Part shown: positions 2,093 through 35,365 of the stretch, in pieces
Layout: every line of letters begins with the position of its first letter
Numbering within the stretch: the stretch's first letter is position 1
Origin: a virus
Reading direction: 5' to 3' (one strand)
Virus genome (UHGV): UHGV-2010328
DNA length: 35,365 nucleotides
Program-made: the position numbers and the translations under genes
The notes under the pieces: generated by a model
Database searches by the model: none
Seen by the model: the letters and a program-made list of their open reading frames with translations, nothing else
What the model was told of the DNA's origin: nothing

Positions 2093-3193
2093 TCACTCTG
2101 TTTCTGCTATCCATTCCGGGATTTTTGCTTCAAGCTCAAGCTGTGTGGTAAAGCCACTGTTATCAATAGAATGCTCAACTTTTGCAATAATCCAGTCCTG
2201 ATTGTCGATGTCGCTTTTAAAGCCTGCCACCGTGCCATGCATTTCGGGGTAGAGTTCAGCGCGACCACGTGCCAGCGTGATGGAGAATGATGCGGCTCCG
2301 CGTTGTAGCTGTTGCCACTTTGCCGCCGCTGCGCGTCTTGCTGCCTGCTCGTTCTGATAAGTCTTGCGTAACACAAACACGTTGCCTTCCGCGCCTTCCA
2401 TATAGTCGCCTTCCCGGCTGCTGCTTTTCTCCTTTTTCGGTTTGCGGCGTTTCACGCTGACTTTTTTCTTTTTCCCGTAATTAAGATCAAGCCAGTAGGC
2501 GCGTACACCCGTATACGCCTCGCGGTCAGCAATGCGAAACTGATGGCGATCGCCGCTGCTGCGTGTGATGGCAAACGATGGCAATGGTTTTCCCTGCGCG
2601 TTCACGCCACCGCCTGGCATGATGAATAACAGATTACCGCTTTTTACCGTGGTGATTGCGCCCAGCATTTCCGCCATGCGCGTAAGGAAGGACATGTCAC
2701 TTTCTTCGGTCTGGTCGGCGTGGTCGATTTCGATATCCATCAGCATTTCGCTAATTTGCGGTTTCAGACCGTACCGATGAGCGATGGCGGATACCACACG
2801 CTCAACGGTCACATCATGCCAGGACACCTCACGTTTAACGTTAAATTCATCCCGAAAATCTGCGCTTCTGGCCGAAATGGTCAGCCTGTCCGGCGGTCCT
2901 TCGTGAGCGATTTCATCAACAATGTAAGTGCCTTTTTCTGTCAGCGGTTCTCCTTTCCAGCCAATGAGAACCGTCAGGCGCGCGCCCCGTGGCGGTAGCT
3001 GCAACTGACCATCCGCATCATCCAGCGTGATGGTGAGCTGGTCCGCCTCAAATCCCCGGTTGTCGGTCAGTGACAGGCTCATCAGGCGCTCTGCCACGCC
3101 TGACAGCGTTTTACCCTCCGCGAGAATATCAAAATCCGGCATTTTCACGGGGTCTGTGCCCTGACTGAGCAATTGCATGGTGGTGTCGGTCAT
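2093..3193 (-). CDS. D: tail protein D (P2 gpD-like)
   Basis: 366 aa from ATG 3193..3191 (MTDTTMQLLSQGTDP...) with GGGAGGG upstream. The in-frame upstream extension to 3325 is rejected. Length and position fit gpD. Confidence 0.8.
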   Translation of the reverse strand: MTDTTMQLLSQGTDPVKMPDFDILAEGKTLSGVAERLMSLSLTDNRGFEADQLTITLDDADGQLQLPPRGARLTVLIGWKGEPLTEKGTYIVDEIAHEGPPDRLTISARSADFRDEFNVKREVSWHDVTVERVVSAIAHRYGLKPQISEMLMDIEIDHADQTEESDMSFLTRMAEMLGAITTVKSGNLLFIMPGGGVNAQGKPLPSFAITRSSGDRHQFRIADREAYTGVRAYWLDLNYGKKKKVSVKRRKPKKEKSSSREGDYMEGAEGNVFVLRKTYQNEQAARRAAAAKWQQLQRGAASFSITLARGRAELYPEMHGTVAGFKSDIDNQDWIIAKVEHSIDNSGFTTQLELEAKIPEWIAETE

Positions 3194-3350
3194 CTGTTCC
3201 CTCCCTGTGCGGCATGGTCGCATGTGCGTGCGGAGGGGGTTACTGCTTTTTGTTGTCGCCGGGTCGGGAGAACGGCGCAGGGGTGAGATTACGCGCGTGG
3301 TGGGTGATGATTGTTGCCGAATCATTTAACGGATACAAGGGGCTGAAGCT

Positions 3351-4535
3351 ATGAGTGAAACTCGTTTTCATGGTGCCCGTGTTACGGAAAATACCGACCT
3401 GGTAACAGCGATTAACGATGTTGATTCCAGCGTTATCGGTATCGTGGCAACGGCGGATGATGCGGACGCGAAGCTGTTCCCGCTGAACAAGCCCACACTG
3501 CTGACCCGCGTCAATGACGTGCTGGGAAAATGCGGGACAACGGGGACGCTTTATCGTGCACTTAAGGCCATCGCAGACCAGGTGAGCACAAAGGTGATCG
3601 TCGTTCGCGTGGCTGAACACAAAGAAGAAGACGGAAAGACGCAGGATCAACTGGTTATCGGTGGTTCTGAGGATGACGGCAGCTATACGGGGATGTATGC
3701 GCTGCTTGTTGCAGAGCAGGATGAAAGCATCGGATACCGTCCGCGTATTCTGGCCGCGCCGGAGCTGGACACGGAGGCTGTAACAAAATCCCTGTGCGTG
3801 ATTGCAGGTAAACTGCGCGCGTTTGTGTATGCCTCATGTTACGGCTGTAACACGATGGCTGAGGCGATTACCTACCGCCAGAAATTCAACGAACGTGAGG
3901 TGATGCTCTTATGGCCGGACTTCATCGCCTACAACCCGAAAAGTGGCAAAAACGAAACGTTCCCCGCGCCTGCCTATGCGTGCGGCCTTCGTGCGTACAT
4001 TGACCATGAGCAGGGCTGGCACAAATCATTGTCCAACGTTCCGGTTAAAAATGTGCTGGGGATGTCGAGGCATGTGTTCTGGTCGTTGCAGGCCGAAGAC
4101 AGCGATGCCAACAGCCTCAACAACAAAGAAATCACGACCATTATTCGTCGCAACGGGTTCCGCTTCTGGGGCAACCGCACACCGGAAACGAACGCCTACA
4201 TCTTTGAGGTGTATACCCGAACCGCACAGGTGCTGGCTGATTCAATTGCGGAAGCGCAGTTTGAAACCATCGACAGTCCACTGACGCCTGCGAATGTGAA
4301 GGATGTTATCAGTGCCATCAGGGCAAAACTGGATTCGCTGGTTACTGCCGGGAAACTGATTGGTGCGGAGTGCTGGTATGACGTGGTGGATAACGGCACC
4401 ACGAATTTACGTCAGGGGCGTGTGCGTATTCGCTACAAATATACGCCCGTTCCGCCACTGGAAGACATGGAGCTTTACCAGACGTTTACTGATGAATACT
4501 TTGAACCCGCATTTGCGGTGCTGGGAGGTGCCTGA
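3351..4535 (+). CDS. FI: contractile tail sheath protein (gpFI-like)
   Basis: 394 aa, RBS AAGGGG before ATG 3351. Followed by tube, E/E', tape measure and U in canonical order. Confidence 0.85.
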   Translation: MSETRFHGARVTENTDLVTAINDVDSSVIGIVATADDADAKLFPLNKPTLLTRVNDVLGKCGTTGTLYRALKAIADQVSTKVIVVRVAEHKEEDGKTQDQLVIGGSEDDGSYTGMYALLVAEQDESIGYRPRILAAPELDTEAVTKSLCVIAGKLRAFVYASCYGCNTMAEAITYRQKFNEREVMLLWPDFIAYNPKSGKNETFPAPAYACGLRAYIDHEQGWHKSLSNVPVKNVLGMSRHVFWSLQAEDSDANSLNNKEITTIIRRNGFRFWGNRTPETNAYIFEVYTRTAQVLADSIAEAQFETIDSPLTPANVKDVISAIRAKLDSLVTAGKLIGAECWYDVVDNGTTNLRQGRVRIRYKYTPVPPLEDMELYQTFTDEYFEPAFAVLGGA

Positions 4536-5047
4536 TGGCTGTGCCAAAACATCTTCGCTTTTTTACGCTGTTTGTGGATGGTGAAAACGAAGTGGGTAAG
4601 GTGACGTCCGTCACTCTGCCTAAGCTGACGCGCAAAACCGACAGCTACCGGGGGGGCGGCATGATGGGTGCGGTAAGTATTGATCTCGGTCTGGAAGACT
4701 CCGCGCTTGATGCGAGCTTTGTCATGGGGGGCGCAGTTCGTGAGCTGTTCCTTAAGTATGGCGGCACGATTGACGGCACGCTGCTGCGTTTTGCGGGTGA
4801 ATACTACACCGATGCAGAAAGTGACCTGTATGAAGTCGAAATGCGCGGACGTGTGACGGAAATTGATATGGGGGAAGCCAAACAGGGCGAAGCCACATCA
4901 CACACTTACGCCATTAAAAACACCTACTACAAGCTGAGTGTTAACGATCGCCCGTTGTGGGAGATTGACCTGCTGAACTTCATTTACCGGAAGGACGGCA
5001 AGGACATTGTGCCCGATCGCATCCGTTCCGCGCTCGGGCTTGGCTGA
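4535..5047 (+). CDS. FII: tail tube protein (gpFII-like)
   Basis: 170 aa. ATG overlaps the FI stop (TGATG). Confidence 0.85.
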   Translation: MAVPKHLRFFTLFVDGENEVGKVTSVTLPKLTRKTDSYRGGGMMGAVSIDLGLEDSALDASFVMGGAVRELFLKYGGTIDGTLLRFAGEYYTDAESDLYEVEMRGRVTEIDMGEAKQGEATSHTYAIKNTYYKLSVNDRPLWEIDLLNFIYRKDGKDIVPDRIRSALGLG

Positions 5048-5101
5048 TAAGTAATATGCAGGCGGCGCAGTGCGTCGCCTCTGACTGAAAGGAGTTTCCT
5101 G

Positions 5102-5467
5102 ATGAAAGAGACGAAAAACATCGATACCGAAAACACGGTAGTTACTGACACTGTGAAAGAAACCAGTGAGCGTGGCGTAAAACTTACCCAACCAATTGAG
5201 CGAGGCGGCGAAAAAATCACGTATGTGGAGATCACCGGGGCTATTGAGCAGGCTGGATCTCTGCGAGATTTGTCGCTGTCTGATGTGCTGAATCTGAAAG
5301 CGGAATCCATGTTTACGCTGTTGTCGCGCGTGACATCACCGCGACTGGATGAAGTGATGATCAAAAAAATGGCATCCCGTGACTTTATTCAGTTATGTGT
5401 GGTTACCGTAAATTTTTTGAGCGGTGCGGACTCTGGCGGGAAGAACGAACAGGCGACGGAAGCCTGA
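5102..5467 (+). CDS. E: tail assembly chaperone E (zero-frame product)
   Basis: 121 aa, RBS AAAGGAG before ATG 5102. Contains the slippery site at 5413-5419. Confidence 0.75.
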   Translation: MKETKNIDTENTVVTDTVKETSERGVKLTQPIERGGEKITYVEITGAIEQAGSLRDLSLSDVLNLKAESMFTLLSRVTSPRLDEVMIKKMASRDFIQLCVVTVNFLSGADSGGKNEQATEA

Positions 5468-5631
5468 TCACGGTTGTGTGCTTTGAGCACATAGAAGACT
5501 TTGTGGCAGATATTGCCGTTATTTTTAACTGGTCGCCCGCCGAAATCTTCATGATGACGCCCGGCGAAGTGGTTAGCTGGCGTGAGCGGGCGGCACTTCG
5601 CAGCGGGAATGCAGACAATGAAGACTCTTGA
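5102..5631 (+). CDS. tail assembly chaperone E+E' (-1 programmed frameshift product)
   Basis: The -1 frame opened at heptamer T_TTT_TTG (5413-5419) continues ...FFERCGLWREERTGDG... to TGA 5629-5631 and overlaps the tape-measure start, as in P2 E/E' and lambda G/GT. Confidence 0.65.
5413..5419 (+). other. slippery heptanucleotide TTTTTTG for -1 ribosomal frameshift (E to E')
   Basis: Zero-frame codons aaT TTT TTG; the -1 frame is open for 72 further codons. Confidence 0.65.
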
Positions 5632-8425
5632 TATCCGGGTCGCTTTCAGCGCCGTTGACAGGCTGACCCGGCCTGCCGAAAACGCCCGCCGCCTGATGGG
5701 GCAGTTTGGTGACTCCATCCAGCGAACGCAGGGGGCGATTAAAAATCTCGAGCGTCAGGCGCGTTCATTTGAGCGCGCCCGCGACGCTGTCAGTAAAGCG
5801 GATGCGGGTATCGTGAAAGCACGACGCCAGCTTAACGCCCTTAATCAGTTACAACGCACGGGTGCAGTGCTCAGCGAAAAACAACAAAAGCTGATGCAGC
5901 AGTTAAGCACCCGGCTTGAACGCCTGAATGAATCGCGCGCACGGGAAATTCAGAAAATGCGGGAGCTTGGCGGAGAGCTGAAACGCCACGGCATTTCCCT
6001 GACAGGCAGCGATAACACCATCCAGCAGGCCATCAGACGCACCGAACAGTACAACAACCAGCTTGAACGCGAACGGCAGGCGCTTGCGCGTGTAACGCGG
6101 GCGCGTGAGCGGTATTCGCGCGCGCAGGAAACTGCGGGAAAACTGAAAACAGGTGGTGCGCTGGCAATTGGTGCGGCAGCGGCGGGCGGCTATGCTGCCG
6201 GGCGTTTTTTGCAGCCCGCGATCGGGTTCGGGAAAGAGATGTCCCGCGTTCAGGCACTGACGCGAATCGACAAAAACAGCCCGCAGTTTAAGGCGCTGCG
6301 TGAGCAGGCGTTAAAACTTGGCTCTGAAACGCAGTTCACCGCAGGCGATGCCGCCAGTGGACAGGCATTTCTTGCAATGGCTGGCTTCACTCCGCAGGCC
6401 ATTCAGGCTGCGCTTCCCGGCGTGCTGAGCATGGCAACGGCTGGCGGTATGGATCTCGGCGAGACGGCGGATATTGGCTCAAATATCCTGACGCAGTTCG
6501 GCCTTTCTGCTGACCAGATGGACCGGGTCGGTGACACACTCACCGCAGCGTTTACCCGTACCAACACTGACCTTCGCGCACTGGGCGAAACCATGAAATA
6601 TGCAGGTCCGGTGGCGGGTAAGCTGGGAATATCGCTGGAGCAGGCCGCAGCTATGGCGGGCGTGCTGGCGAATATGGGCATCAGGGGGAGTGATGCCGGG
6701 ACGGCAATGCGTGCCAGCCTGGCTCGTCTGGCATCACCGCCAAAGGCGGCGGCAGAAGCTCTGAAAGAGCTGGGCGTGTCTGTCTCGGATGCCGGGGGCA
6801 AAATGCGCCCGATGGAAGATCTGCTGGCTGACCTTTATAAAGCTACCCGCAAATACGGGGAAGTTGACCGGGTATCCTTCTTTAAGGACATCGCCGGGGA
6901 AGAGGCTTTCACATCGTTTATGGCGCTCGTTGATGCGGCGGGTGACGGTTCCTTACCCAAACTGAGAAAAGAACTTGAGGGCGCACGCGGTGAGGCTGAA
7001 CGCACAGCAAAGGTTATGGCCGACAACCTTGATGGCGACCTGAAAAATCTCGACAGCGCATGGGAAGGTCTTCGTATTCGCATCAGTGATCTGGTTGACG
7101 GTTCGCTGCGTTCTGTCACGCAGTGGCTAACGCGGGTGGTCTCAAAGGTGACGGCACTGGCGCAGGCCCATCCTGTACTGACGCGCCAGCTACTGATTGC
7201 AGGCGGTGCGCTGCTGGCAGTGACTGCAACCGTAGGCTCGTTGTCGCTTGCTCTTGGTGTGCTTGCTGGCCCACTGGCAAAACTGCGTCTTGGTTTTTCC
7301 CTCCTGACCGGATCAATGAATGCTGTCAGGCTCCTGCCAGCACTATGGGGAATGGTGACGGGTTCCGTTTCTTTGCTGGGAGGTGCTATCGGGGCGCTGT
7401 TCAGTCCGGTTGGTCTTATCGTGGCTGCGCTTGCCGGAGCTGCCATTCTTATCTGGAAATACTGGGATCCCATCAGGGCATTTTTTGCCGGGGTGTTCAG
7501 CGGGATTATGGAAAGGCTGACCCCGTTGCGCGAAACCTTTGAACGGTTTGGCCCTGTTTTTGACGTAATCGGAAGCGGGATCAGCCAGGTGTTTAACTGG
7601 TTTAAATCGCTGCTGTCACCGATGGAGTCCAGCAAGGAAACGCTGGATAAATGTGCCAGTGCTGGCGAGGTATTCGGTAACGTTCTTGGTGGTGCGTTAC
7701 AACTTGTTCTGACACCTGCAAAAATGTTGCTGGATACGCTGGCGTGGATACTTGAAAAGCTCGGTGTGCTTCCGGATGAAGCGGAAAGGGCGCGCAAGAA
7801 AATCGAAGACGCACAGCGTGCGGCCATTCTTCAGGACAAGGTTGCCTTGCTTCAGGGGGACTTGGCGAAAATCAATCCGCCGAAGCCTGTGGAAAATGGC
7901 AATGGCACCGGAAGCGATAAACCCAAAGACAACAAACCGCTCACAGACAGCAATACCGGTACGCTACGCAGACTCAGCAAGATTGCTGATAACACAGGTA
8001 AGCTGGTTGATGAGACGAAAAAACGCATTGGTCCTGGCGATATTGTCTTTAAGAACCTGCCCCGCGCACTTGCTGTTCGTGGGGAGTGGCAGGAGCGGAA
8101 GATTGCGCAGGTCAGTAAGCCTGCCCCCGCAATTAATATCACACCCGTAGTCCCGGCTCCGCTGCCTCCGGCGCTGGTCCCTGTTGTTGCGGCCAGCTCC
8201 CGCCCGGTGGCGGAGGCCATACGATCGCCAGTGGCATCAGTTCCTGCAACTTCCCGTAACCGGGAGCCTGCTGTCTCCGGATTTGGCGGTGAAATTCATG
8301 TTCATCTGCATAACGTTGTTACGCAGAATCCCAGCGAACTGGCGAAACTGGTCGGTGAAATGGTCAGGGCAGAAATGGAACGGCGCGCCCGTGCCGGGCG
8401 TGGCAGTTTTTACGATAAAGATTGA
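5609..8425 (+). CDS. T: tail tape measure protein (gpT-like)
   Basis: 938 aa from ATG 5609 (ORF frame opens at GTG 5582). Coiled-coil N-terminal half, Gly/Ala-rich hydrophobic middle. Position between E' and U. Confidence 0.85.
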   Translation: MQTMKTLDIRVAFSAVDRLTRPAENARRLMGQFGDSIQRTQGAIKNLERQARSFERARDAVSKADAGIVKARRQLNALNQLQRTGAVLSEKQQKLMQQLSTRLERLNESRAREIQKMRELGGELKRHGISLTGSDNTIQQAIRRTEQYNNQLERERQALARVTRARERYSRAQETAGKLKTGGALAIGAAAAGGYAAGRFLQPAIGFGKEMSRVQALTRIDKNSPQFKALREQALKLGSETQFTAGDAASGQAFLAMAGFTPQAIQAALPGVLSMATAGGMDLGETADIGSNILTQFGLSADQMDRVGDTLTAAFTRTNTDLRALGETMKYAGPVAGKLGISLEQAAAMAGVLANMGIRGSDAGTAMRASLARLASPPKAAAEALKELGVSVSDAGGKMRPMEDLLADLYKATRKYGEVDRVSFFKDIAGEEAFTSFMALVDAAGDGSLPKLRKELEGARGEAERTAKVMADNLDGDLKNLDSAWEGLRIRISDLVDGSLRSVTQWLTRVVSKVTALAQAHPVLTRQLLIAGGALLAVTATVGSLSLALGVLAGPLAKLRLGFSLLTGSMNAVRLLPALWGMVTGSVSLLGGAIGALFSPVGLIVAALAGAAILIWKYWDPIRAFFAGVFSGIMERLTPLRETFERFGPVFDVIGSGISQVFNWFKSLLSPMESSKETLDKCASAGEVFGNVLGGALQLVLTPAKMLLDTLAWILEKLGVLPDEAERARKKIEDAQRAAILQDKVALLQGDLAKINPPKPVENGNGTGSDKPKDNKPLTDSNTGTLRRLSKIADNTGKLVDETKKRIGPGDIVFKNLPRALAVRGEWQERKIAQVSKPAPAINITPVVPAPLPPALVPVVAASSRPVAEAIRSPVASVPATSRNREPAVSGFGGEIHVHLHNVVTQNPSELAKLVGEMVRAEMERRARAGRGSFYDKD

Positions 8426-8437
8426 GGAGTCATGGCC

Positions 8438-8926
8438 ATGATGATGATCTACGGCATGTTTGTTTTTGAGCTGCGCACGCTGCCGCATCAGCAGTTACAG
8501 CAAAACAAAAGCTGGCGGCATGTGAAAAATGAACGCGTTAACCGTTCAGCAAGCTGGCAGTATATCGGTGCAGGTGATGATCGCATCGTTCTTTCTGGTG
8601 TGCTTTATCCTGAAATTACAGGTGGCGAAGTGTCGCTGTCGCTGCTGACCACGCAGGCGTATACAGGACGACCCTGGCCTCTGATTGATGGCGTCGGGCA
8701 GATTTACGGCATGTATGTCCTGACCGGAACGAATACGACCCGTTCCGAGTTTGATCGCTACGGTAAGGCGAAAAAGATAGAATTTTCACTGACACTTGAA
8801 CGCTGTGATGAGGATTTGCGGGAGCGCCTGCAATCCTCATCATTCAGCGATATGCTGTCCGGCTTCAAAGATAAGGTGACATCATCTCTTAACAGCGCGG
8901 CCAGTTCAGTTAAAGGGCTGTTCTGA
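8438..8926 (+). CDS. U: tail protein U (gpU-like)
   Basis: MMMIYGMFVFELRTLPHQQLQ resembles the P2 gpU N-terminus. GAGGAG lies 8 nt upstream of ATG 8438 (ORF-track start 8432 is too close to the RBS). Confidence 0.8.
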   Translation: MMMIYGMFVFELRTLPHQQLQQNKSWRHVKNERVNRSASWQYIGAGDDRIVLSGVLYPEITGGEVSLSLLTTQAYTGRPWPLIDGVGQIYGMYVLTGTNTTRSEFDRYGKAKKIEFSLTLERCDEDLRERLQSSSFSDMLSGFKDKVTSSLNSAASSVKGLF

Positions 8927-8938
8927 TTTAACACAAAA

Positions 8939-8972
8939 ACCGCTAATGGTCAGATTAGCGGTTATTTTGTTT
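8939..8972. terminator. bidirectional intrinsic terminator between U (+) and invertase (-)
   Basis: Stem accgctaat / attagcggt with a 6-nt loop, flanked by an A-run upstream and T-run downstream, so it reads as a terminator on both strands. Confidence 0.6.
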
Positions 8973-9549
8973 CCTGACTCTTCTCAATTGTTCCGCTTGA
9001 TTCTCCTGCGGGGTGGTAACGATAAATCGTCGATATACCAATGCCGTAAATTATTGCCAGTTGTTTTCTGTCGTGCCCGTTTTTGATCAGCCTTGCTATT
9101 TGCTCATGCTGTTCTTTTGTCAGCTTCGGGCGACGTCCGCCTGTGCGCCCCCGTGCGCGCGCTGCCGCCAGTCCGGCCAGTGTGCGTTCAACAATTAATT
9201 CACGTTCCATTTCAGCCAGGGCATCCATCACGTGGAAGAAAAAACGCCCCATTGGAGAAGATGTATCTATGCTGTCGGTCAGACTGCGAAAATTAATTCC
9301 TCGCTCCCGTAGTTCCCCGACGAGAGAAATCAGATGTTTCATGCTTCGCCCGAGGCGATCCAGTTTCCAGACAACCAGCGTGTCACCTTTTTGAAGGCGC
9401 TTTAAAGCGCGTTTTAATCCCGGTCGGTCTGTCTTTGTCCCGCTTAATTTATCTTCAAATATTTGTTCGCATCCTGCACAAACAAGAGCGTTTCGTTGCA
9501 GGTCTGTATTCTGGTCATTTGTTGATACCCTTACATAGCCAATCAGCAC
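8962..9549 (-). CDS. serine recombinase, DNA invertase (Gin/Hin/Pin/Cin family)
   Basis: Likely GTG start 9549..9547 giving MLIGYVRVSTNDQNTDLQRNALVCAGCEQIFEDKLSG..., near-identical by recollection to the Mu Gin / Salmonella Hin N-terminus including the catalytic Ser in YVRVST. ORF-track start is TTG 9567. Confidence 0.9.
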   Translation of the reverse strand: MLIGYVRVSTNDQNTDLQRNALVCAGCEQIFEDKLSGTKTDRPGLKRALKRLQKGDTLVVWKLDRLGRSMKHLISLVGELRERGINFRSLTDSIDTSSPMGRFFFHVMDALAEMERELIVERTLAGLAAARARGRTGGRRPKLTKEQHEQIARLIKNGHDRKQLAIIYGIGISTIYRYHPAGESSGTIEKSQETK

Positions 9550-9603
9550 ACTGAATCTCCCGTCCAAAAGCGCAAATCATGCCATGCAGGCCAGAAACGG
9601 CCA

Positions 9604-9629
9604 TTATCTAAAACCTCGGTTTGCAGGAA
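9604..9629. other. gix/hix-like 26-bp inversion crossover site (site 1)
   Basis: ttatctaaaacctcggtttgcaggaa; its reverse complement ttcctgcaaaccgaggttttagataa matches the Gin/Hin pattern TTC..G.AAACC-GA-GGTTTT.GATAA. Lies between the invertase start and the promoterless fibre segment. Confidence 0.75.
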
Positions 9630-10490
9630 ACGATAAACAAGGCTTCTGGTGCATTGCAGAAAAACCAGAACGGTGCGGATATTCCAGGGAAAGATACTTT
9701 CACAAAAAATATTGGTGCAGCGAAAGCGGCCAGCGAAAGTATCAATATTGGAGGAGATAGCAGCAACTGGACGACAGCACAGTTTATTGCGTGGCTGGAG
9801 TCTCAGGGGGCATTTAATCACCCATACTGGATGTGCAAAGGTTCATGGTCTTACGCCAATAATAAAATTATTACAGATACAGGTTGCGGGAATATTCAAC
9901 TTGCTGGCTCGGTGGTTGAAGTTATGGGCACCAAGGGCGCAATGACTATTCGCGTCACTACTCCAACAACTGCAACAAACGGTACAGCAAAAGCGCAATT
10001 TACTTATATTAATCATGGTGACACCTACGCGCCTGGCTGGCGTCGCGACTGGAATCGTGCTGGCGATACCATGACTGGGGAACTGATAATCACATCACAG
10101 AATGCTTTAAGGATGATTGCAGGAAATTATGGTGCAATTCTGCGACAGGATGGTGGCAGCTTGTATCTGTTATTTACTGCCAGTGGTGACCAGTACGGTA
10201 GCTGGAATGGTCTTCGTCCATTCTATATCGCACTTAATACTGGCCTTGTTACCATGGGGCACGGTCTGAATGTTAACGGGCAGGTTGTCCCATCCAATTA
10301 CATTAATTTTGACTCGCGCTATATACGAGATATTCGTCTGGGTACGCGTGTTGTTCAGACCATGCAAAAAGGCGTGATGTATGAAAAATCAGGCCATGTA
10401 ATTACGGGGCTTGGCATTGTTGGTGAAGTTGATGGCGATGATCCGGCTGTTCAGGCCAATACAAAAATACATCAATGGCACATGGTATAA
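9612..10490 (+). CDS. promoterless alternative tail-fibre C-terminal variable segment (Sv'-type), expressed only after inversion
   Basis: Frame opens inside gix site 1 with no ATG (TTG at 9621). Ends ...SRYIRDIRLGTRVVQTMQKGVMYEKSGHVITGLGIVGE..., shared with the C-terminus of H. Followed by its own assembly gene. Confidence 0.7.
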   Translation, partial: NLGLQETINKASGALQKNQNGADIPGKDTFTKNIGAAKAASESINIGGDSSNWTTAQFIAWLESQGAFNHPYWMCKGSWSYANNKIITDTGCGNIQLAGSVVEVMGTKGAMTIRVTTPTTATNGTAKAQFTYINHGDTYAPGWRRDWNRAGDTMTGELIITSQNALRMIAGNYGAILRQDGGSLYLLFTASGDQYGSWNGLRPFYIALNTGLVTMGHGLNVNGQVVPSNYINFDSRYIRDIRLGTRVVQTMQKGVMYEKSGHVITGLGIVGEVDGDDPAVQANTKIHQWHMV

Positions 10491-10509
10491 CATTGCACAG
10501 GTATAAATC

Positions 10510-11037
10510 ATGCAGCATTTAAAAAACATCAATTCAGGAAACCCAAAAACTAAAGAGCAATATCAGCTAACAAAGAATTTTGATGTTATCTGGTTGTGGT
10601 CAGAAGAAGGAAAAAACTGGTACGAGGAATTAAAAAACTTCCAGGAAGACACAATAAAAATTCTTTATGACGAGAATAATATTATTGTCGCCATCACCAA
10701 AGATGCCTCCACGCTTAACCCTGAAGGTTATAGCGTCGTTGAAGTTCCTGATATTACAGCTAATCGTCGTGCCGATGATTCAGGGAATTGGATGTTTAAG
10801 GACGGAGCTGTAGTTAAGCGGATTTATACGGCAGACGAACAGCAACAACAGGCCAAATCGCAAAAGGCCGCGTTACTTTCCGAAGCTGAATCAGTTATCC
10901 AGCCACTGGAACGAGCTGTCAGGCTGAACATGGCGACGGATGCGGAACGCGCCCGACTGGAGTCATGGGAACGCTACAGCGTTCTGGTCAGTCGTGTGGA
11001 TACAACAAAGCCAGAATGGCCACAAAAGCCTGAGTAA
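10510..11037 (+). CDS. tail fibre assembly protein (gpG / Mu U-like), partner of the alternative fibre tip
   Basis: 175 aa, [41 protein letters not shown].... N-terminal ~100 aa about 80% identical to the convergent paralogue at 11066-11599. Confidence 0.8.
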
Positions 11038-11042
11038 AAATT

Positions 11043-11062
11043 AAGGCCCGATATCGGGCCTT
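11043..11062. terminator. bidirectional hairpin between the convergent tail-fibre assembly genes
   Basis: Perfect palindrome ggcccgatatcgggcc flanked by A/T-rich sequence. Confidence 0.6.
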
Positions 11063-11065
11063 CTC

Positions 11066-11599
11066 TCATTCTGGTTGTTCGGGAAACGTTACTGGCAGGC
11101 TGGAAGTGTCTGTCGATTCGACTTTCTGCGCATAGTGCATCCACTCGGTTAATTTTTGTTTATTCTCATCGGAAATGATGCCCAGCCGTAGCTGTGAGTC
11201 CCATAGCTGGGTTTTATCCCTGACGAGCTGTAGCAGGCTTTGCTTTTCATTTTCTGCTTGTTGCCTCTGCTCTTCCTCGGTATAAGTTCGCTTTATCACC
11301 ACGCCATCTTTGAACATCCAGTTGCCCGAAATATCAGCCCGGCGGTTTGCTGTAATATCAGGCAACTCAACGACACTTAAACCTTCTGGATTAATTGCCG
11401 ATACATCCTTATCCATAGCAACAATTATTCCCTCGACTGTGTAAGCTAGCTTTATTGTATCTTCCTGGAAGTTTTTTAATTCCTCGTACCAGTTTTTTCC
11501 TTCTTCTGACCACAACCAGATAACATCAAAATTCTTTGTTAGCTGATATTGCTCAACGGTCTTTGGATTACCTGCGACAATGTTCTTTAAATGCTGCAT
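11066..11599 (-). CDS. G: tail fibre assembly protein (gpG-like), partner of the currently expressed H tip
   Basis: 177 aa, [41 protein letters not shown].... Immediately downstream of H on the same strand. Confidence 0.8.
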
Positions 11600-11602
11600 A
11601 AA

Positions 11603-13579
11603 TTACACCTGCGATACGTTATACCATGTTCCGTTAATTAACTTTTGTATTGGTCTGAANNNNNNNNNNNNNNNNNNNNNTTCACCAACAATGCCAAGCC
11701 CCGTAATTACATGGCCTGATTTTTCATACATCACGCCTTTTTGCATGGTCTGAACAACACGTGTTCCTAGGCGAATATCTCGTACATAGCGAGAATCTGA
11801 TTCAGCTTTGGTATATGCACCAATATCTCCTGCTGATGGTTTGTGAGCGGTTGTATATAGTTGCGCCCATCCAGACCAATTAGCATCTGCTGTATCTCGT
11901 CGGGAACGAATATATGCCGGAGCATGGCCGCCGCTGGTCCCACTCCACCCAATAAATAACTCTCCTTCGCCAACTGCCGCTACGCCAGTAAGATGAAGAA
12001 CGTTACCATAAGTAAAAGGATATCCATTGTTGTACGCTTCATACATTTGGATACCTGGCGTACCCTTTGCGCTCCCACTTAATGCTGTAACACGGTTTCG
12101 GGATACTAACGTATTAATATTTATATCGCTGGAACCATCAAATTTAACGCCATTAATATTTCTTGCTGTTTTTAGCTTTGTTGCAGTAGCGGCATTGCCG
12201 GACAACTCCCCAGAAAGGCCACCGCTGAATGTTTGTCGATTGGTCCAAGTATTCGCTGTACTGAGTAACGGTATTTTTTCCCCGCTTGTGCCGAGTTCTC
12301 GTAAACCGAGGTATTCGATAACGGCGGCAACGGTCGATTTCGCAAGAATATCCCGCCCGACTTTTGTCAGAGTTGCCAGGCTGGCGACATCATTCCCCGT
12401 AAAATACGGAAACCTGTCTGCCGCAGTAGCAAGCCCCGCCAGCGCCGTCAGAGTGGCATCTTTCGGTTGCTTACCTGCAAGCGCGTTAGTCATGGTGGTC
12501 GCAAAATTCGGGTCGTTGCCCAGCGCCGCCGCTAACTCGTTCAGCGTATTCAGTGCGTCAGGCGACGAGTCTACAAGTGCGGCAATCGCGGCCATCACAT
12601 AAGCCGTGCTTGCGATCTGAGTATTATTAGTACCTTTTGGCGCAGTTGGCGTTGTTGGCGTTCCGGTCAGCGAAGGACTGTTTAAGGGCGCTTTCTTGTT
12701 CGTTTCATCCATTACCGCCTTAACAGCTTTTGGCGTCGCAGCCAGCGTTTCAGATGTGCTGTTAGTGGCGCTACTGAGCTGAACTATCCCTTTTCGTGCC
12801 GTCGTTGCGTCCTGAGCGGTATATTTTGCGTTAGCAAGGTCATATGCAGCCTTTACCGCCTTTGGCGTTGCCGCCAGCGTCTCAGAATCGCTGTTGGTGG
12901 CGCTACTGAGCTGAACTATCCCTTTCCGCGCAGTGGTAGCGTCCTGTGCGGTGTATTTGCTATTAGCCAGGTCATATGCCGCCTTAACAGCCTTTGGGGT
13001 TGCCGCAAGCGTTTCTGACGTGCTATTGGTGGCGCTGCTAAGTTGAACAAAACCTTTTGCGGTCAGCGAGGCGTCCGGGTGACGTCGTGACTGTTCATGC
13101 TCTTTCAGTTTGTCATCCACGTAATCCACTGTGGCCATCACCATGGTGTTATCCACGGTAAGCGCCACGGTGGCAGTGCTGGATACGGTCAGAATGGTGC
13201 GAAATGTTTGTGCACGTCCGGACCCTTCGGCAACGGCTGGCTTGTAACTTTCGGCAGTATTGCCTACCGCAATCAAATCGCCGTGCTCATCAAACACACC
13301 AATTTCCCGGATCCAGAATCCGCCCGTTTCAGGAGGAATAACCAGCTCCGCAATAATGCGGTTCTGATGTGTTGCGTCCAGGATGACGCGATTAACAGTA
13401 TGTCGCCACACCTCATGCACCAGACGGGTCTGCTTACTGTCTGGTGTGGGCAACGTGCCGTCACCCACGGCCATATGAGTCAGGCGGACAGGCTTACCAT
13501 CTGGCGCGGCTGCCTGAGCTAATTTTTTTGCACCCGTATTGGTGATAACGGTTTTAAATTTTCGTGTTGTGGTACTCAT
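11603..13579 (-). CDS. H: tail fibre protein H (constant N-terminal part 13579..12322; invertible variable part 12321..11603)
   Basis: 658-codon ORF from ATG 13579..13577, with three tandem fibre repeats and gix site 2 inside the coding sequence (..VIEYLGLRE..). The C-terminal 18 codons lie beyond a 21-nt N run, so their frame and the true stop are uncertain. Confidence 0.85.
   Translation of the reverse strand: MSTTTRKFKTVITNTGAKKLAQAAAPDGKPVRLTHMAVGDGTLPTPDSKQTRLVHEVWRHTVNRVILDATHQNRIIAELVIPPETGGFWIREIGVFDEHGDLIAVGNTAESYKPAVAEGSGRAQTFRTILTVSSTATVALTVDNTMVMATVDYVDDKLKEHEQSRRHPDASLTAKGFVQLSSATNSTSETLAATPKAVKAAYDLANSKYTAQDATTARKGIVQLSSATNSDSETLAATPKAVKAAYDLANAKYTAQDATTARKGIVQLSSATNSTSETLAATPKAVKAVMDETNKKAPLNSPSLTGTPTTPTAPKGTNNTQIASTAYVMAAIAALVDSSPDALNTLNELAAALGNDPNFATTMTNALAGKQPKDATLTALAGLATAADRFPYFTGNDVASLATLTKVGRDILAKSTVAAVIEYLGLRELGTSGEKIPLLSTANTWTNRQTFSGGLSGELSGNAATATKLKTARNINGVKFDGSSDININTLVSRNRVTALSGSAKGTPGIQMYEAYNNGYPFTYGNVLHLTGVAAVGEGELFIGWSGTSGGHAPAYIRSRRDTADANWSGWAQLYTTAHKPSAGDIGAYTKAESDSRYVRDIRLGTRVVQTMQKGVMYEKSGHVITGLGIVGEXXXXXXXFRPIQKLINGTWYNVSQV
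11660..11680. other. run of 21 N (assembly gap or masked bases) inside H
   Basis: Directly abuts the 81-bp perfect inverted repeat at 11681-11761. Confidence 0.95.
12296..12321. other. gix/hix-like 26-bp inversion crossover site (site 2), inside H
   Basis: ttctcgtaaaccgaggtattcgataa; 20 of 26 positions identical to the inverted site 1, with the same central GA dinucleotide. Encodes IEYLGLRE of H in frame. Confidence 0.75.
12713..13075 (-). repeat. three tandem 132-bp (44-aa) repeats within H (tail-fibre repeat motif)
   Basis: The string gctactgagctgaac recurs at 12770 and 12902, with a diverged copy near 13034. Protein repeats KG(F/I)VQLSSATNS.SETLAATPKAVKAAYDLAN.KYTAQDATTAR, twice plus one partial. 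Confidence 0.8.
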
Positions 13580-25831: not shown

Positions 25832-26209
25832 TTATCCGCGTATATACCTAAAGGACTGAGGTGGTACAGCGCCAGGTATCAATTCATTAAGTGGAATTGG
25901 AGTATCATAGCGCAGAGGGTTTTTTACTTCTATTGCGAATCCCTTGTCTCTTTCTGAAAAATATTCATCAAAAAAATCCCGCGTAATACCTGCATACTTT
26001 TTTGTCATATTCCATAATTCATCTGGCTGAGATGACAAAACCTTTTCAATTTCAAACTCACCAATTACCTTTCCGACGGGCATTGTTGCATAAATAATAA
26101 CCGCTCGGACTTCTTTGTTCCGAAAAATTGTCTTCCTGAATTCGAATTTTTTATATCCATTTAAAATGGATTCAGCGAACTCTGGTTTAATCGACAATAA
26201 AATTTTCAT
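25832..26209 (-). CDS. stand-alone ASCH/PUA-like domain protein (125 aa)
   Basis: MKILLSIKPEFAESILNGYKKFEFRK... matches the ASCH-type N-terminal motif. ATG 26209..26207 overlaps the upstream gene by 23 nt. AT-rich. Confidence 0.55.
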   Translation of the reverse strand: MKILLSIKPEFAESILNGYKKFEFRKTIFRNKEVRAVIIYATMPVGKVIGEFEIEKVLSSQPDELWNMTKKYAGITRDFFDEYFSERDKGFAIEVKNPLRYDTPIPLNELIPGAVPPQSFRYIRG

Positions 26210-27242
26210 TAACCTTTCCCGCGCTTAAAACAGCTTTGAAGTGAACATCACTTAACGTGAAGAACCCTGAATAGCTTGGAGTATAACCTAAAATACTCAA
26301 CAATTCATCTCTAATTATTCTTTTTTGCAAAGGGAAATTGTAAGTTAACTTAATTACATGTGGAGGATAACATCTGCTATAATAAGCATATAATTCTTCA
26401 TCAGAAAAAATACTGGCGCCTCCACAATAAGACTTAAACTCATCATATGATAAAAATTCTCGAATGTTTTTATACTCTTGTAATGTACAAACAGAAGTAA
26501 CCACCGACCGATATTTCGCCGCTCCCTGTCCATCTGTCGTTCGATAAATAATTATATTATCTCCTGGCTGAAGAAGCTCCATGCCTTTCATCGCGCCAAT
26601 ATATATCTTATGAATACTATTAGTATAAGTAACATCTTCTAAAATAGAATCATTTTCATTTTTTAAAATTGACTCCGGGAAAAGCCTTGAATGAAACTCA
26701 GGTTTAATGGCTAATAAAAAATTTCTTCCATTCATTTTTATCATAGGATAATTATTATAAAATGATGCTGCTGATGGCTTCCAGTTAAAATCCTTAAAGT
26801 AGACACCTTCACAACCGTTTTCCGTCTCAAGATTTTTTCTTGAACACAATTTAAAACCATAGCGTTCAAGTAAACGAATCAATCCTTGATGTTTGTCAAA
26901 GATAGTAACGTACACTTCCTGAATATCATGAGGCATTGCAAAGTCAAATATTTTTCTTACAAATCTCTCCCCCATTTTCGTTCCACGAGCATCAATTTTA
27001 AATGTTCCGCATTTAAGACGTTTTTTCATAGGGAAAGATGGGGTCATGTCATTTAATTCCTCATTTTCAATTTTGAGGTATAAAAAACCATCTATTTTCC
27101 CATAATCATCATAAGATACGTATGCTTTCTCATTTCTTTTCTTTAAGAACCAGCTTTCAAAAGTTGGGTAGTCATTTTTAAGCGAGTCAAAAAAAACATC
27201 TGAGAGGTCAACCTTCCCAAATTCGACATAACTAAGAGACAT
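26187..27242 (-). CDS. GNAT-like acetyltransferase fused to a C-terminal ASCH/PUA-like domain (351 aa)
   Basis: ATG 27242..27240 with AGGA RBS (ORF-track 5' extension rejected). N-terminal half has GNAT-like core motifs (ARGTKMGERFVRKIF ... EVYVTIFDKHQGLIRLLERYGFK); C-terminal half has ...FLLAIKPEFHSRLF... like the downstream ASCH-like protein. Domain assignment is by eye. Confidence 0.5.
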   Translation of the reverse strand: MSLSYVEFGKVDLSDVFFDSLKNDYPTFESWFLKKRNEKAYVSYDDYGKIDGFLYLKIENEELNDMTPSFPMKKRLKCGTFKIDARGTKMGERFVRKIFDFAMPHDIQEVYVTIFDKHQGLIRLLERYGFKLCSRKNLETENGCEGVYFKDFNWKPSAASFYNNYPMIKMNGRNFLLAIKPEFHSRLFPESILKNENDSILEDVTYTNSIHKIYIGAMKGMELLQPGDNIIIYRTTDGQGAAKYRSVVTSVCTLQEYKNIREFLSYDEFKSYCGGASIFSDEELYAYYSRCYPPHVIKLTYNFPLQKRIIRDELLSILGYTPSYSGFFTLSDVHFKAVLSAGKVNENFIVD

Positions 27243-27354
27243 TGTGCCATCCTTTTCAGTAGGTATTTTGCAAAAAACGTTACTGTATCTCAAAATATAT
27301 GTAAATAAACTTAGATCAAAAAAATGCTTACTAACGCTTTGTCTTACCGGGGCT

Positions 27355-27455: not shown

Positions 27456-27767
27456 TCATTGAGGGAACATGGCCTGTATATTCTTTTTCATCTGTGTAAC
27501 GTTGTTATTCTCTGTATCCTGCTGTGGTGATTTATTTCGTGGCGTTGGTGTGAGCGGCTGACTGAATCCGCCTTCAGGCCATTCAGCCAGCCAGTAAGCA
27601 AAGGCAGGATCGGTTTTGATGAGTGCCAGTCCAGCCAGAAATGCCGCGCGTTGCGCGCGGCTGCGTTCGGAGGCTGGCAGGTTGTCGAGATAATTACACG
27701 CTTTCCGTTCACTCTTGACGGCTGCTGGCTTCAGATAGAAACTTATTCTTCTGGTTAATGTCGCCAT
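27456..27767 (-). CDS. parR: ParR/StbB-like partition adaptor protein
   Basis: ATG 27767..27765 with AGGAG RBS (ORF-track extension rejected); 103 aa, MATLTRRISFYLKPAAV...ERSRAQRAAFLAGLALI resembles R1 ParR. Immediately downstream of parM. Confidence 0.7.
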   Translation of the reverse strand: MATLTRRISFYLKPAAVKSERKACNYLDNLPASERSRAQRAAFLAGLALIKTDPAFAYWLAEWPEGGFSQPLTPTPRNKSPQQDTENNNVTQMKKNIQAMFPQ

Positions 27768-27771
27768 GGGG

Positions 27772-28731
27772 TTACTCCTTATCCATAGCGTACAGACCGT
27801 TAACCAGAGCAAACTGTGGCACCCCGTCCGCGATGAAAGTCGCATTAACTCCGCAGGCTTCGCGGATCGCGGGTGCCACAATCTCCGCCCCGCCACCGAC
27901 AACCATCACCCGCCCATACCCCGAAAAACCAGCCAGCGCGCGGATCACGCGTTGTTTCAGTGTTTCCTCCTTTTCACGAATAACTGCCATCAGGCTGGCG
28001 TAATGTGCGTTATTGTGGATGTGCTGGCGCAGCCAGGCTTCATCGTGGCGATGTTCGATAATGGTATTGGCGATGTGGTGGCTGGTACGCATACCGTTGG
28101 TGGCCATCACCGACAGAACGGCATCAGCCATCAGAGAAACGCCTACGTGTGGATCGCAAAACACCTGGCTGATACCTGCCAGTTGTCCCTGAACCTTTGC
28201 CACATCCAGCGTGGTTCCGCCTAAATCCACAATCAGCAGGGATTCAAACGGACTCATGTCAGCCAGTGCCTTAAAGCCAGCCGGAATGGATTCAGGCATA
28301 ACCCGTACGTTACGGATAGTGAATGCTTCGCCGTTCTGGTACTCCACCGGGCGTATGACGTTCGCTTTTTTGCGGTTGATGTTGGCCATGTCCGGTTGTG
28401 CGTTTGTGTCGAAATACTCGCTCAGTGGCAGGGTGACAACCACATCCACCTCCTGTGGCGTGATGCCTGATTTGACCAGCGCGTGATGAATGGCAATGAC
28501 ATTCACATCGCTGTACTGGTATTGCGTGTCGGTCGTCTGGACAAAGCGATCGCTGACCGGATCAAAACCATAGCGCACGCCATCAAGCATGTAGTTCGCG
28601 GGCTGCATGCCACCGAACGGCGCAGACCATTCCGATTTGAAGCTGTTCGGGCTGATGGCGTTGCGGCGTTCGCCGTTCTCAGTCCATGCCAGCTTGATGT
28701 TGGTGGAGCCGTCGTCGATACAAATTTTCAT
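27772..28731 (-). CDS. parM: ParM/StbA-like actin-type partition ATPase
   Basis: 319 aa, MKICIDDGSTNIKLAW...ISPNSFK...YSDVNVIAIHHAL...VMPESIPAG...DLGGTTLD...VVGGGAE; close to plasmid R1 ParM throughout by recollection. Confidence 0.85.
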   Translation of the reverse strand: MKICIDDGSTNIKLAWTENGERRNAISPNSFKSEWSAPFGGMQPANYMLDGVRYGFDPVSDRFVQTTDTQYQYSDVNVIAIHHALVKSGITPQEVDVVVTLPLSEYFDTNAQPDMANINRKKANVIRPVEYQNGEAFTIRNVRVMPESIPAGFKALADMSPFESLLIVDLGGTTLDVAKVQGQLAGISQVFCDPHVGVSLMADAVLSVMATNGMRTSHHIANTIIEHRHDEAWLRQHIHNNAHYASLMAVIREKEETLKQRVIRALAGFSGYGRVMVVGGGAEIVAPAIREACGVNATFIADGVPQFALVNGLYAMDKE

Positions 28732-34029: not shown

Positions 34030-34338
34030 ATGCTTATCGGTGAAAAAATTAGAGTGATTCGTGAATCAGAGGATTTAACGCGCGAAGAATTTTGCGGCCT
34101 GATTGATGTGCCTGTCGGCACTTTGCGTCGTTATGAAACGGGGCGGATTGAAAACATAGGGGGCGAAGTGCTTATCAAGATTGTTAATCACCCTCGCTTT
34201 TTTAAGTACATGAATTGGCTTATGACAGGAAAAACGAATGAGGCTGCTGGGCAGATCAGTCCCTCTCTCTCCCCTGATGGGCCAGAAAACACATCGTCTT
34301 CTCAAAAGCCCCGCAAGACTGGTACACAGCCCGGCTAA
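34030..34338 (+). CDS. C: immunity repressor C (HTH, P2 C-like)
   Basis: 102 aa from ATG 34030 (MLIGEKIRVIRESEDLTREEF...GTLRRYETG...), similar in length and C-terminal region to P2 C. An alternative ATG at 33994 would overlap the operators. Confidence 0.75.
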   Translation: MLIGEKIRVIRESEDLTREEFCGLIDVPVGTLRRYETGRIENIGGEVLIKIVNHPRFFKYMNWLMTGKTNEAAGQISPSLSPDGPENTSSSQKPRKTGTQPG

Positions 34339-34387
34339 TCATGGAACGCTGGGGGCATGGTGGTCTTGTAACGCTGGGGTTTCACGA

Positions 34388-35365
34388 ATGAGCATAAAAT
34401 CAATTCCGGGAGGGTATCTTCTTGACATGCGCCCGGAGGGGCGTAAAGGCAAACGCATTCGTAAAAAATTTAAAACGAAATCGGATGCAGTTTTATATGA
34501 GCGGTGGGTGCTGGCGCAACAGCATAACAATGAGTGGAAAGGAAACTCTATTGATCGCCGTCCTCTGTCAGTGCTTATTGACTTGTGGTGGAAATACCAC
34601 GGCCAGCTAATGAAGTCAGGGCATAACACGCGCCTTAAATTGCTGCGCTTGAGTGAGGCAATGGATGACCCGTGCGTGCATAAACTTAATACAACGATGC
34701 TCACCGAGCTACGTGTGTCCAGGATAGAGCAGGGGATACAGCCCAGCACCATAAATCGAGAGATTGGGGCGTTAAGCGCGATGTTTACCGCACTCATCTC
34801 ATCCGGCCATTTTCTTAACGATAACCCCGTTCAAGGCCTTAAAGGAATGAAGGTTAACGAGCGCGAAATGGGATATCTGAGTAAGTCTGAATGTGTTCAG
34901 TTGCTGGATGCACTGGCTGAAAATCCCGATGAGCGGCTGGCTGTCGAAATCCTTCTGTCGACCGGGGCGCGATGGGGCGAGGTAGCGGCACTGGAGCAAC
35001 GCCGCGTTCTGCATTGTCGAATCACTTTTTCAAAAACGAAGAACAGCAAAAACCGTACCGTTCCTATTTCTGAAAGCCTGTTTGAAAAGATCAAAAAACG
35101 GGGCGGGAAACTGGTGTTTCCGACGCTGGATTATTCATTGGTTCGCGATGTCATCAAAACGGTCGCACCTGATGTTCCTGACGGCCAGGCTGTTCATGCG
35201 CTGCGCCACACCTTCGCCAGTCATTTCATGATGAACGGTGGCAATATTCTGACGCTCCAGAAAATTCTGGGGCACGCAAAGATTCAGACAACGATGATTT
35301 ATGCCCATCTTGCGCCGGATTACCTGCAGGATGCGGTGAGGTTTAATCCACTAGGAGGTGCTTAA
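34388..35365 (+). CDS. int: tyrosine integrase (P2 Int-like)
   Basis: 325 aa from ATG 34388, with catalytic-region motifs ...GARWGE..., HALRHTFASH and ...IYAHL.... Last gene of the element, downstream of C as in P2. Confidence 0.9.
   Translation: MSIKSIPGGYLLDMRPEGRKGKRIRKKFKTKSDAVLYERWVLAQQHNNEWKGNSIDRRPLSVLIDLWWKYHGQLMKSGHNTRLKLLRLSEAMDDPCVHKLNTTMLTELRVSRIEQGIQPSTINREIGALSAMFTALISSGHFLNDNPVQGLKGMKVNEREMGYLSKSECVQLLDALAENPDERLAVEILLSTGARWGEVAALEQRRVLHCRITFSKTKNSKNRTVPISESLFEKIKKRGGKLVFPTLDYSLVRDVIKTVAPDVPDGQAVHALRHTFASHFMMNGGNILTLQKILGHAKIQTTMIYAHLAPDYLQDAVRFNPLGGA

Follow-up and report, generated by a model that had tools for sequence, protein, structure and literature searches.

Inversion of tail fiber segments by site-specific recombination is a textbook type of switch, exemplified by the G segment of phage Mu, the C segment of P1 and the P segment of e14. 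It is also known from experiment in P2-like prophages: in two such prophages of enteropathogenic Escherichia coli (EPEC) E2348/69, inversion was shown by sequencing and by polymerase chain reaction (PCR; Goldberg et al., PMC4272514). Here we describe a corresponding locus in UHGV virus genome UHGV-2010328, the whole of which, a stretch of 35,365 nucleotides (nt), is referred to below as the window. Gene H of this genome encodes a tail fiber of the P2 gpH type, and the region around its distal part is very probably a site-specific inversion switch of the Mu G-segment type, carried by a P2-like (Xuanwuvirus/P88-like) temperate phage. The coordinates of its parts are collected in Table 1.

Table 1. 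Parts of the inversion locus, with positions in the window
Feature	Position	Strand	Remarks
DNA invertase, Gin/Hin/Cin/Pin family serine recombinase	8962-9549	-	195 aa (amino acids) from likely start GTG 9549; adjoins segment
5' coding part of invertase gene, homologous to enhancer-bearing part of Mu gin	9380-9549	-	from alignment to Mu gin
Left crossover site, gix-like, 26 bp	9604-9629	+	TTATCTAAAACCTCGGTTTGCAGGAA; central TC (GA on other strand) at 9616-9617
Silent alternative fiber C-terminus, Sv'-like	9612-10506	+	Pfam Gp34_trimer, 5e-21; no start codon or promoter
Internal inverted repeat of ~348 bp, left arm	10311-10658		partner 11451-11797; arms 87-94% identical
Assembly chaperone of silent fiber, Mu U / P2 G type	10510-11037	+	Pfam Caudo_TAP, 3e-35
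GC-rich palindromic hairpin	11043-11062		AAGGCCCGATATCGGGCCTT; between convergent chaperone genes; from terminator scan
Assembly chaperone of expressed fiber, Mu U' type	11066-11599	-	Pfam Caudo_TAP, 4e-34
Variable C-terminal part of H, expressed at present, Sv-like	11603-12308	-	part of ORF (open reading frame) 11603-13579; contains a run of 21 N
Right crossover site, 26 bp, inside H	12296-12321	-	TTATCGAATACCTCGGTTTACGAGAA; central GA at 12308-12309 on + strand
Constant N-terminal part of tail fiber H, P2 gpH type	12309-13579	-	Pfam Phage_tail_fib and Phage_fiber_2; stays in place on inversion

Both crossover sites closely resemble the recombination sites of Mu. The left site is identical to Mu gix (sequence from NC_000929) at 24 of 26 positions and the right site at 22 of 26; in the same record, both annotated boundaries of the Mu G segment read TTATCCAAAACCTCGGTTTACAGGAA. 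The two sites of the window lie in inverted orientation and share 21 of their 26 positions, one more than had been counted in an earlier note on this DNA, whose other statements about them (the inverted orientation, the shared central GA and the fit to the Gin/Hin pattern) are borne out, the last by the alignment with authentic gix. A search for repeats recovered the same pair as a 30-nt inverted repeat, 80% complementary, with a spacing of 2,666 nt. When a degenerate gix pattern was applied with up to three mismatches, these two sites were the only matches in the 35-kb window; 100 dinucleotide-preserving shuffles gave none, and the number expected by chance is zero. A looser core motif adds one match, at 26694, which is unrelated and within the chance level. 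At up to three mismatches the window contains no third crossover site of the kind found in shufflons such as p15B Min or one of the EPEC prophages. The switch is a two-site system and not a shufflon, in contrast to that EPEC locus with its three sites. The right site is read in frame within H, where it encodes IEYLGLRE at residues 421-428. The frame that opens at the left site begins directly after a TAA at 9609-9611, reads NLGLQETINK and has no ATG. Both frames agree with the description given earlier of one site inside H and a second at the head of an ATG-less fiber frame.

The segment between the sites carries two alternative fiber ends. Each has its own assembly gene, and the two pairs converge on a palindrome, an arrangement proposed in the earlier note on which the ORFs, the Pfam domains and a terminator scan agree. 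The H ORF (11603-13579, minus strand) is uninterrupted and includes a Phage_tail_fib domain and three Phage_fiber_2 repeats; its product is 658 aa as read, or 659 aa if the run of N is taken as 24 nt, its length in the related contig L006. The silent fiber ORF as read stops at 10490, and the intact frame, found in L006 and in a second related contig, L008, stops at 10506. The variable parts of the two fibers have their last 65 aa in common at 94% identity and are otherwise unrelated, and this shared end is P2-H-like. The chaperone on the silent side has 91% identity with Mu U and 90% with P2 G; for the one on the expressed side the values are 84% with Mu U' and 61% with its silent-side counterpart. 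The hairpin between the chaperone genes has a stem of eight pairs, six of them GC, with a T-run on the minus strand and a weak T tract on the plus strand; these features make it terminator-like for the operon that would currently be expressed, on the minus strand. Each arm of the internal inverted repeat takes in the final ~65 codons of a fiber and the initial ~50 codons of its chaperone. When exchange at the central GA was simulated, the constant part of H was joined in frame to the second C-terminus with no interruption. After inversion H is a 720-aa protein whose tip contains Gp34_trimer, and the chaperone that accompanies it is of the Mu U/P2 G type.

Both orientations, which the earlier note had proposed to look for, are present among public assemblies. 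Related contigs were found by exact-sequence look-up of the silent-side chaperone. Two of them, L006 and L011, are the same as the window and in the same orientation, except for the run of N and a 2-nt deletion discussed below. The contig L008 (ENA ERZ28564962), a metagenome scaffold, matches the window at 100% over 15413-12303 and 9622-6891, flanks of ~5.8 kb in all, and between these flanks its segment is inverted relative to the window. The constant part of H in L008 is 100% identical, and the complete protein has 720 aa and carries Gp34_trimer; the swap of the fiber tip by inversion, as foreseen in the earlier note, is thus seen as an in-frame H fusion both in the simulation and in a natural sequence. 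The junctions that distinguish the two orientations are TTATCTAAAACCTCGGTTTACGAGAA (parental) and TTATCGAATACCTCGGTTTGCAGGAA (hybrid). The sites of L008, TTATCGAATACCTCGGTTTGCAGGAA and TTCTCGTAAACCGAGGTTTTAGATAA, are the exact hybrids predicted from those of the window. The window sites differ at positions 6, 9, 20, 22 and 23, and the exchange in L008 took place between positions 9 and 20. Because the junctions of L008 equal the predicted hybrids and the site differences flank the exchange, it falls within 10 bp that include the central GA. A second case is provided by a Mu-like prophage that carries the same cassette at 97.8% identity, flanked by gin, com and mom. Between the isolate assemblies L007 and L009 the flanks of this cassette are identical, its orientation is opposite and the outer half-sites have changed places; a third assembly contributes the contig L012, of 2,718 nt, which consists of the segment alone. 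Both types of junction were also returned by a census of complete E. coli genomes with junction queries, in 158 and 123 genomes at a coverage of at least 80%. A 3.3-kb query covering 9300-12600 of the window found no place with at least 80% coverage in 5,426 complete E. coli genomes; because no genome carries the exact cassette, the census cannot show one element flipping.

The enzyme encoded beside the segment is a Gin-like invertase, as stated in the earlier note, and it is intact. It matches the Pfam families Resolvase (4e-50) and HTH_7 (2e-13), and over residues 1-182 it is matched at E=1e-99 by 4M6F and 3UJ3, two solved structures of Gin. Over the whole protein the identity to Mu Gin is 80.5%; the first ~132 aa contain four substitutions, and the catalytic domain is almost the same as that of Gin. 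A mechanical ORF list starts the gene at TTG 9567; the related contigs call the 195-aa product given in Table 1. Invertases of this family carry the Ser nucleophile in a YVRVST motif of the N-terminal catalytic domain, and the stretch LIGYVRVSTNDQ of the window enzyme is identical in Gin; the C-terminal DNA-binding domain is nearer to that of Hin. Residues of Hin are numbered here by a Hin protein sequence. Basic residues of helix B (Hin K47, R48, and K51) together with Gln151, Arg154, and Leu155, which make contact with Fis and the enhancer, are described as specific to invertases that depend on Fis and an enhancer (PMC3798978). Both sets are kept in the window invertase, which reads RPGLKRALKRL and EQIARL at these places, the latter containing the Q-x-x-R-L of Hin 151-155.

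In Mu, P1 and Salmonella, a recombinational enhancer with Fis sites acts in cis from the 5' part of the invertase gene; for Mu, its position inside this gene goes back to Kahmann et al. (1985, cited in PMC3798978). Over the 5' region of the invertase gene, the window differs from Mu gin at 3 of 169 aligned coding columns (98% identity), and the intergenic spacer is ~80% identical. The distance from the center of the crossover site to the start codon of the invertase is 67 nt in the window and in Mu alike. The near identity with Mu gin suggests that a putative Fis-dependent recombinational enhancer (sis) is located in this region. A candidate for the proximal Fis-type 15-mer (G-N13-C), GTATCAACAAATGAC, is found at 9514-9528, with its center 95.5 bp from the crossover point; the proximal Fis site of Hin is located ~100 bp from hixL (PMC3798978). 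At the place expected for the enhancer, no two strict G-N13-C matches with a spacing of 48 bp were found, and a clean second site at that distance was not identified. The enhancer that the earlier note had suggested looking for in this region is therefore a candidate supported by the 98% identity to the 5' region of Mu gin.

Taken with what is known of the Mu system, these parts suggest the following course of events. The Gin-like serine invertase would bind as dimers to the two inverted gix-like sites, which would synapse on the Fis-bound enhancer within the 5' part of the gene for the invertase itself. Cleavage of both sites at the central GA would be followed by a 180-degree rotation of one half-site pair and by religation, and the 2,692 bp that separate the crossover points would be flipped. 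The late operon V-W-J-I-H would read across the right site, so that the variable C-terminus and chaperone adjoining that site are expressed; the distal pair would be silent because it has neither a promoter nor a start codon. A population of lysogens would accordingly be expected to release two types of virion that differ in their receptor-binding tips. Dependence on Fis and the rate of inversion are both properties that we infer for this phage, dependence on negative supercoiling would go with membership in the family, and a change of host range between the two orientations would be expected by analogy with Mu and P1.

Several observations weigh against a functional switch in this phage, or against its consequences. 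The evidence for inversion comes from other assemblies and not from the window's own sample. A consensus scan revealed no sigma-70-like promoter at 9547-9640 that could serve the invertase or the silent fiber. The C-terminal end that the two variable parts share makes the size of any host-range difference uncertain. At position 109 of Gin, where Gin itself carries Gly and Hin carries Ser, the window invertase has Asp, and nothing on residue 109 of Gin or residue 110 of Hin was found in PMC4513852. Finally, a TG is absent from the window after 10447 (10447/10448); the silent fiber is thereby frameshifted over its last 18 codons, and its conserved C-terminal FRPIQKYINGTWYNIAQV becomes QANTKIHQWHMV. 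If this deletion is real, the flipped state would yield a defective fiber.

The altered fiber C-terminus and the Asp in the invertase are the points that would favor a frozen or decaying switch, in which the anatomy of a G segment is retained but the invertase is impaired (G109D) or the silent fiber is a pseudogene, leaving the phage locked in one state. Comparison with the related contigs speaks against both. The flipped contig L008 encodes an invertase that is 100% identical to that of the window, Asp109 included. The TG at 10447/10448 is present in five related contigs (L006, L008, L011, L007, and L012), among them L006 and L011, which elsewhere match the window exactly; without the deletion, the silent side would be expected to read GGCTGTGTTCAGG within 10420-10460. 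The run of 21 N occupies 11660-11680 of the window, where L006 and L011 have 24 nt (TACAGCCGGATCATCGCCATCAAC in L006). Within the internal inverted repeat, the position of this run mirrors that of the 2-nt deletion, and another contig, L005, has a gap of 66 N at the same place. Because the two defects mirror each other, the relatives keep the TG and L005 is interrupted there as well, both are read as assembly trouble and are probably artefacts that arose at the repeat. A locked phage, or a genuine pseudogene in the silent fiber, is improbable, and a switch of the Mu type that can still invert is the reading preferred here.

A second alternative would attribute the inversion to RecA-dependent homologous recombination between inverted repeats and not to the site-specific invertase. 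The segment does contain inverted repeats, among them the 348-bp internal pair with ~90% identity, and L008 shows a pattern resembling gene conversion in the internal repeat, a patch of ~100 nt (window 11555-11654) in which one arm has the sequence of the other and which may reflect either gene conversion or an assembly collapse. The repeats at the breakpoints, however, are 26-30 bp long and ~80% identical, far too short and divergent for this pathway, and the exchanges in L008 and in the L007/L009 pair map within the 26-bp sites, at positions 9-20. Recombination between the arms of the internal repeat would moreover invert 10659-11450 only, which is not the pattern found. It is highly unlikely that RecA accounts for the inversion of the segment, although RecA-dependent flipping of the chaperone block between the arms of the internal repeat is conceivable. 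Scarcely any weight can be given to the idea that the two orientations do not exist as real molecules and arose when inverted repeats were misassembled in metagenome or draft data: the flipped form is known from assembled contigs (the metagenome scaffold L008) and the region does produce assembly gaps, but the outer repeats, at 26 bp and imperfect, are below the k-mer sizes of the assemblers (L006 is named k119), so that an assembler could change path there only if reads spanned the hybrid junctions, and the hybrid sites of L008 are exactly those predicted, the independent pair of isolate assemblies (L007/L009) agrees, and inversions of this type have been confirmed by PCR (PMC4272514).

With an invertase-driven G-segment-type switch as the preferred account, the locus can be placed among its P2-like relatives. 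The nearest named relatives are the Xuanwuvirus phages 503458, 520873, and P88 together with the UMNF18 prophage, with ~90% DNA identity over 60-74% of the region. In each of these four a DNA invertase is annotated, and pairs of gix-like sites are found at the same positions as in the window. All four also share with the window the order tape measure, gpU, invertase, silent fiber and its chaperone, second chaperone, H, I, and J. The paper describing P88 makes no mention of an invertase or of inversion. The constant part of H in the window runs collinear with H of P2 itself and closely resembles it as far as ...AAVIEYLGL, and the two diverge after the right site. P2 is without the invertase, the second site and the alternative C-terminus, and in P2 fun(Z) follows G. 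Within P2 H (L013, 3713-3738, minus strand), a lone gix-like sequence, TTATCGAATATCTCGGTTTACAGGAA, occupies the codons for VIEYLGLQE and looks like a relic of a crossover site. The statement in the earlier note that P2 lacks such a switch consequently holds as far as the invertase and the second site are concerned, but P2 is not wholly free of sites, as one gix-like relic is found in H.

The window and P2 also differ in the orientation of the neighboring tail genes. The FI-U tail operon runs in the same direction as H in P2 and is convergent with H in the window, where the block of tail sheath, tube, E, tape-measure, and U genes occupies 3351-8926 on the plus strand and gpD (2093-3325, minus strand) is divergent from FI. 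The tail block is thereby reversed relative to the P2 order H-G-FI-FII-E-T-U-D. Neither inverted repeats nor gix-like sites were found flanking the FI-U block of the window. P88 and 503458 have the same arrangement of tape measure, gpU, and invertase beside the switch, and the reversed block looks like a trait of the lineage.

The invertible cassette is common to Mu-like and P2-like phages. In the Mu-like prophage (L007, L009, L010, and L012; NCBI GCA_9028376xx/78xx) it is located between gp45-48/S and gin-com-mom, and similarity between this prophage and the window stops exactly at the fiber-side crossover site. Because the cassette is 97.8% identical in the two phages, because similarity stops at the site and because P2 retains a relic, it may tentatively be suggested, as a possibility that we consider less probable than its opposite, that gix sites serve both as flip points and as the boundaries of a portable module, with the internal repeat allowing a RecA-dependent shuffle of tips and chaperones. 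Co-resident, unrelated prophages could in this manner exchange receptor-binding cassettes, either by an intermolecular reaction mediated by the invertase or by recombination anchored at the sites. Horizontal exchange of fiber modules at such sites is reportedly an old idea, said to go back to Haggard-Ljungquist in 1992 and Sandmeier in 1992-94. For the suggestion that gix sites bound portable modules, novelty would lie in a demonstrated mechanism alone.

For annotation, the switch means that the second 'tail fiber protein' beside the invertase is to be taken as the silent alternative C-terminus of H, neither a pseudogene nor an independent gene. Host-range prediction for this phage, and for the P88-like phages used in host-range engineering, has to allow for two forms of the fiber. 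Metagenome and draft assemblies break at loci of this kind or keep one orientation. Beyond annotation and host range, the switch contributes no new understanding of DNA inversion systems.

Some further features of the window lie outside the invertible segment. Between the convergent genes for gpU and the invertase there is a near-perfect palindrome at 8930-8971 (AACCGCTAAT...ATTAGCGGTT), which receives a terminator score on both strands. An actin-like partition ATPase of the ParM/StbA type (1e-81) and a Plasmid_stab_B protein are encoded (27456-28731, minus strand) next to a replication gene of the P2 gpA type. The product of the latter has 955 aa and is presumably longer than the A protein of P2. 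A tyrosine integrase is encoded at 34238-35365 on the plus strand, its stop codon coinciding with the end of the window; the genes next to the replication gene would be partition-like genes in a P2-like phage that integrates. A small protein with an ASCH domain (1e-06; 25832-26209, minus strand) is encoded next to a 368-aa ORF at 26187-27293 for which no Pfam match was found, and the two are possibly accessory (moron) genes.

Among the described inversion systems, Hin/hix, Cin with the C segment of P1 and Pin with the P segment of e14 belong, like the system of the window, to the family of Fis- and enhancer-dependent serine invertases that act on 26-bp sites. The comparison with these systems was made through a Hin protein sequence. 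Hin differs from the window system in that it inverts a promoter and is encoded within its own segment. The G segment of Mu corresponds to the switch of the window in layout: in both, the invertase gene adjoins the silent end of the segment from the outside, with transcription directed away from it, the constant N-terminal part of the fiber also lies outside, and two variable C-termini with two chaperones converge within. The constant part is that of Mu S in the one case and of P2 gpH in the other, and the distance between the crossover points is 3,059 bp in Mu as against 2,692 bp in the window. The variable parts of the window are mosaic with respect to Mu, in that the silent fiber's N-terminal portion is ~85% identical to Mu S' at the DNA level, yet it is accompanied by a chaperone of the U type.

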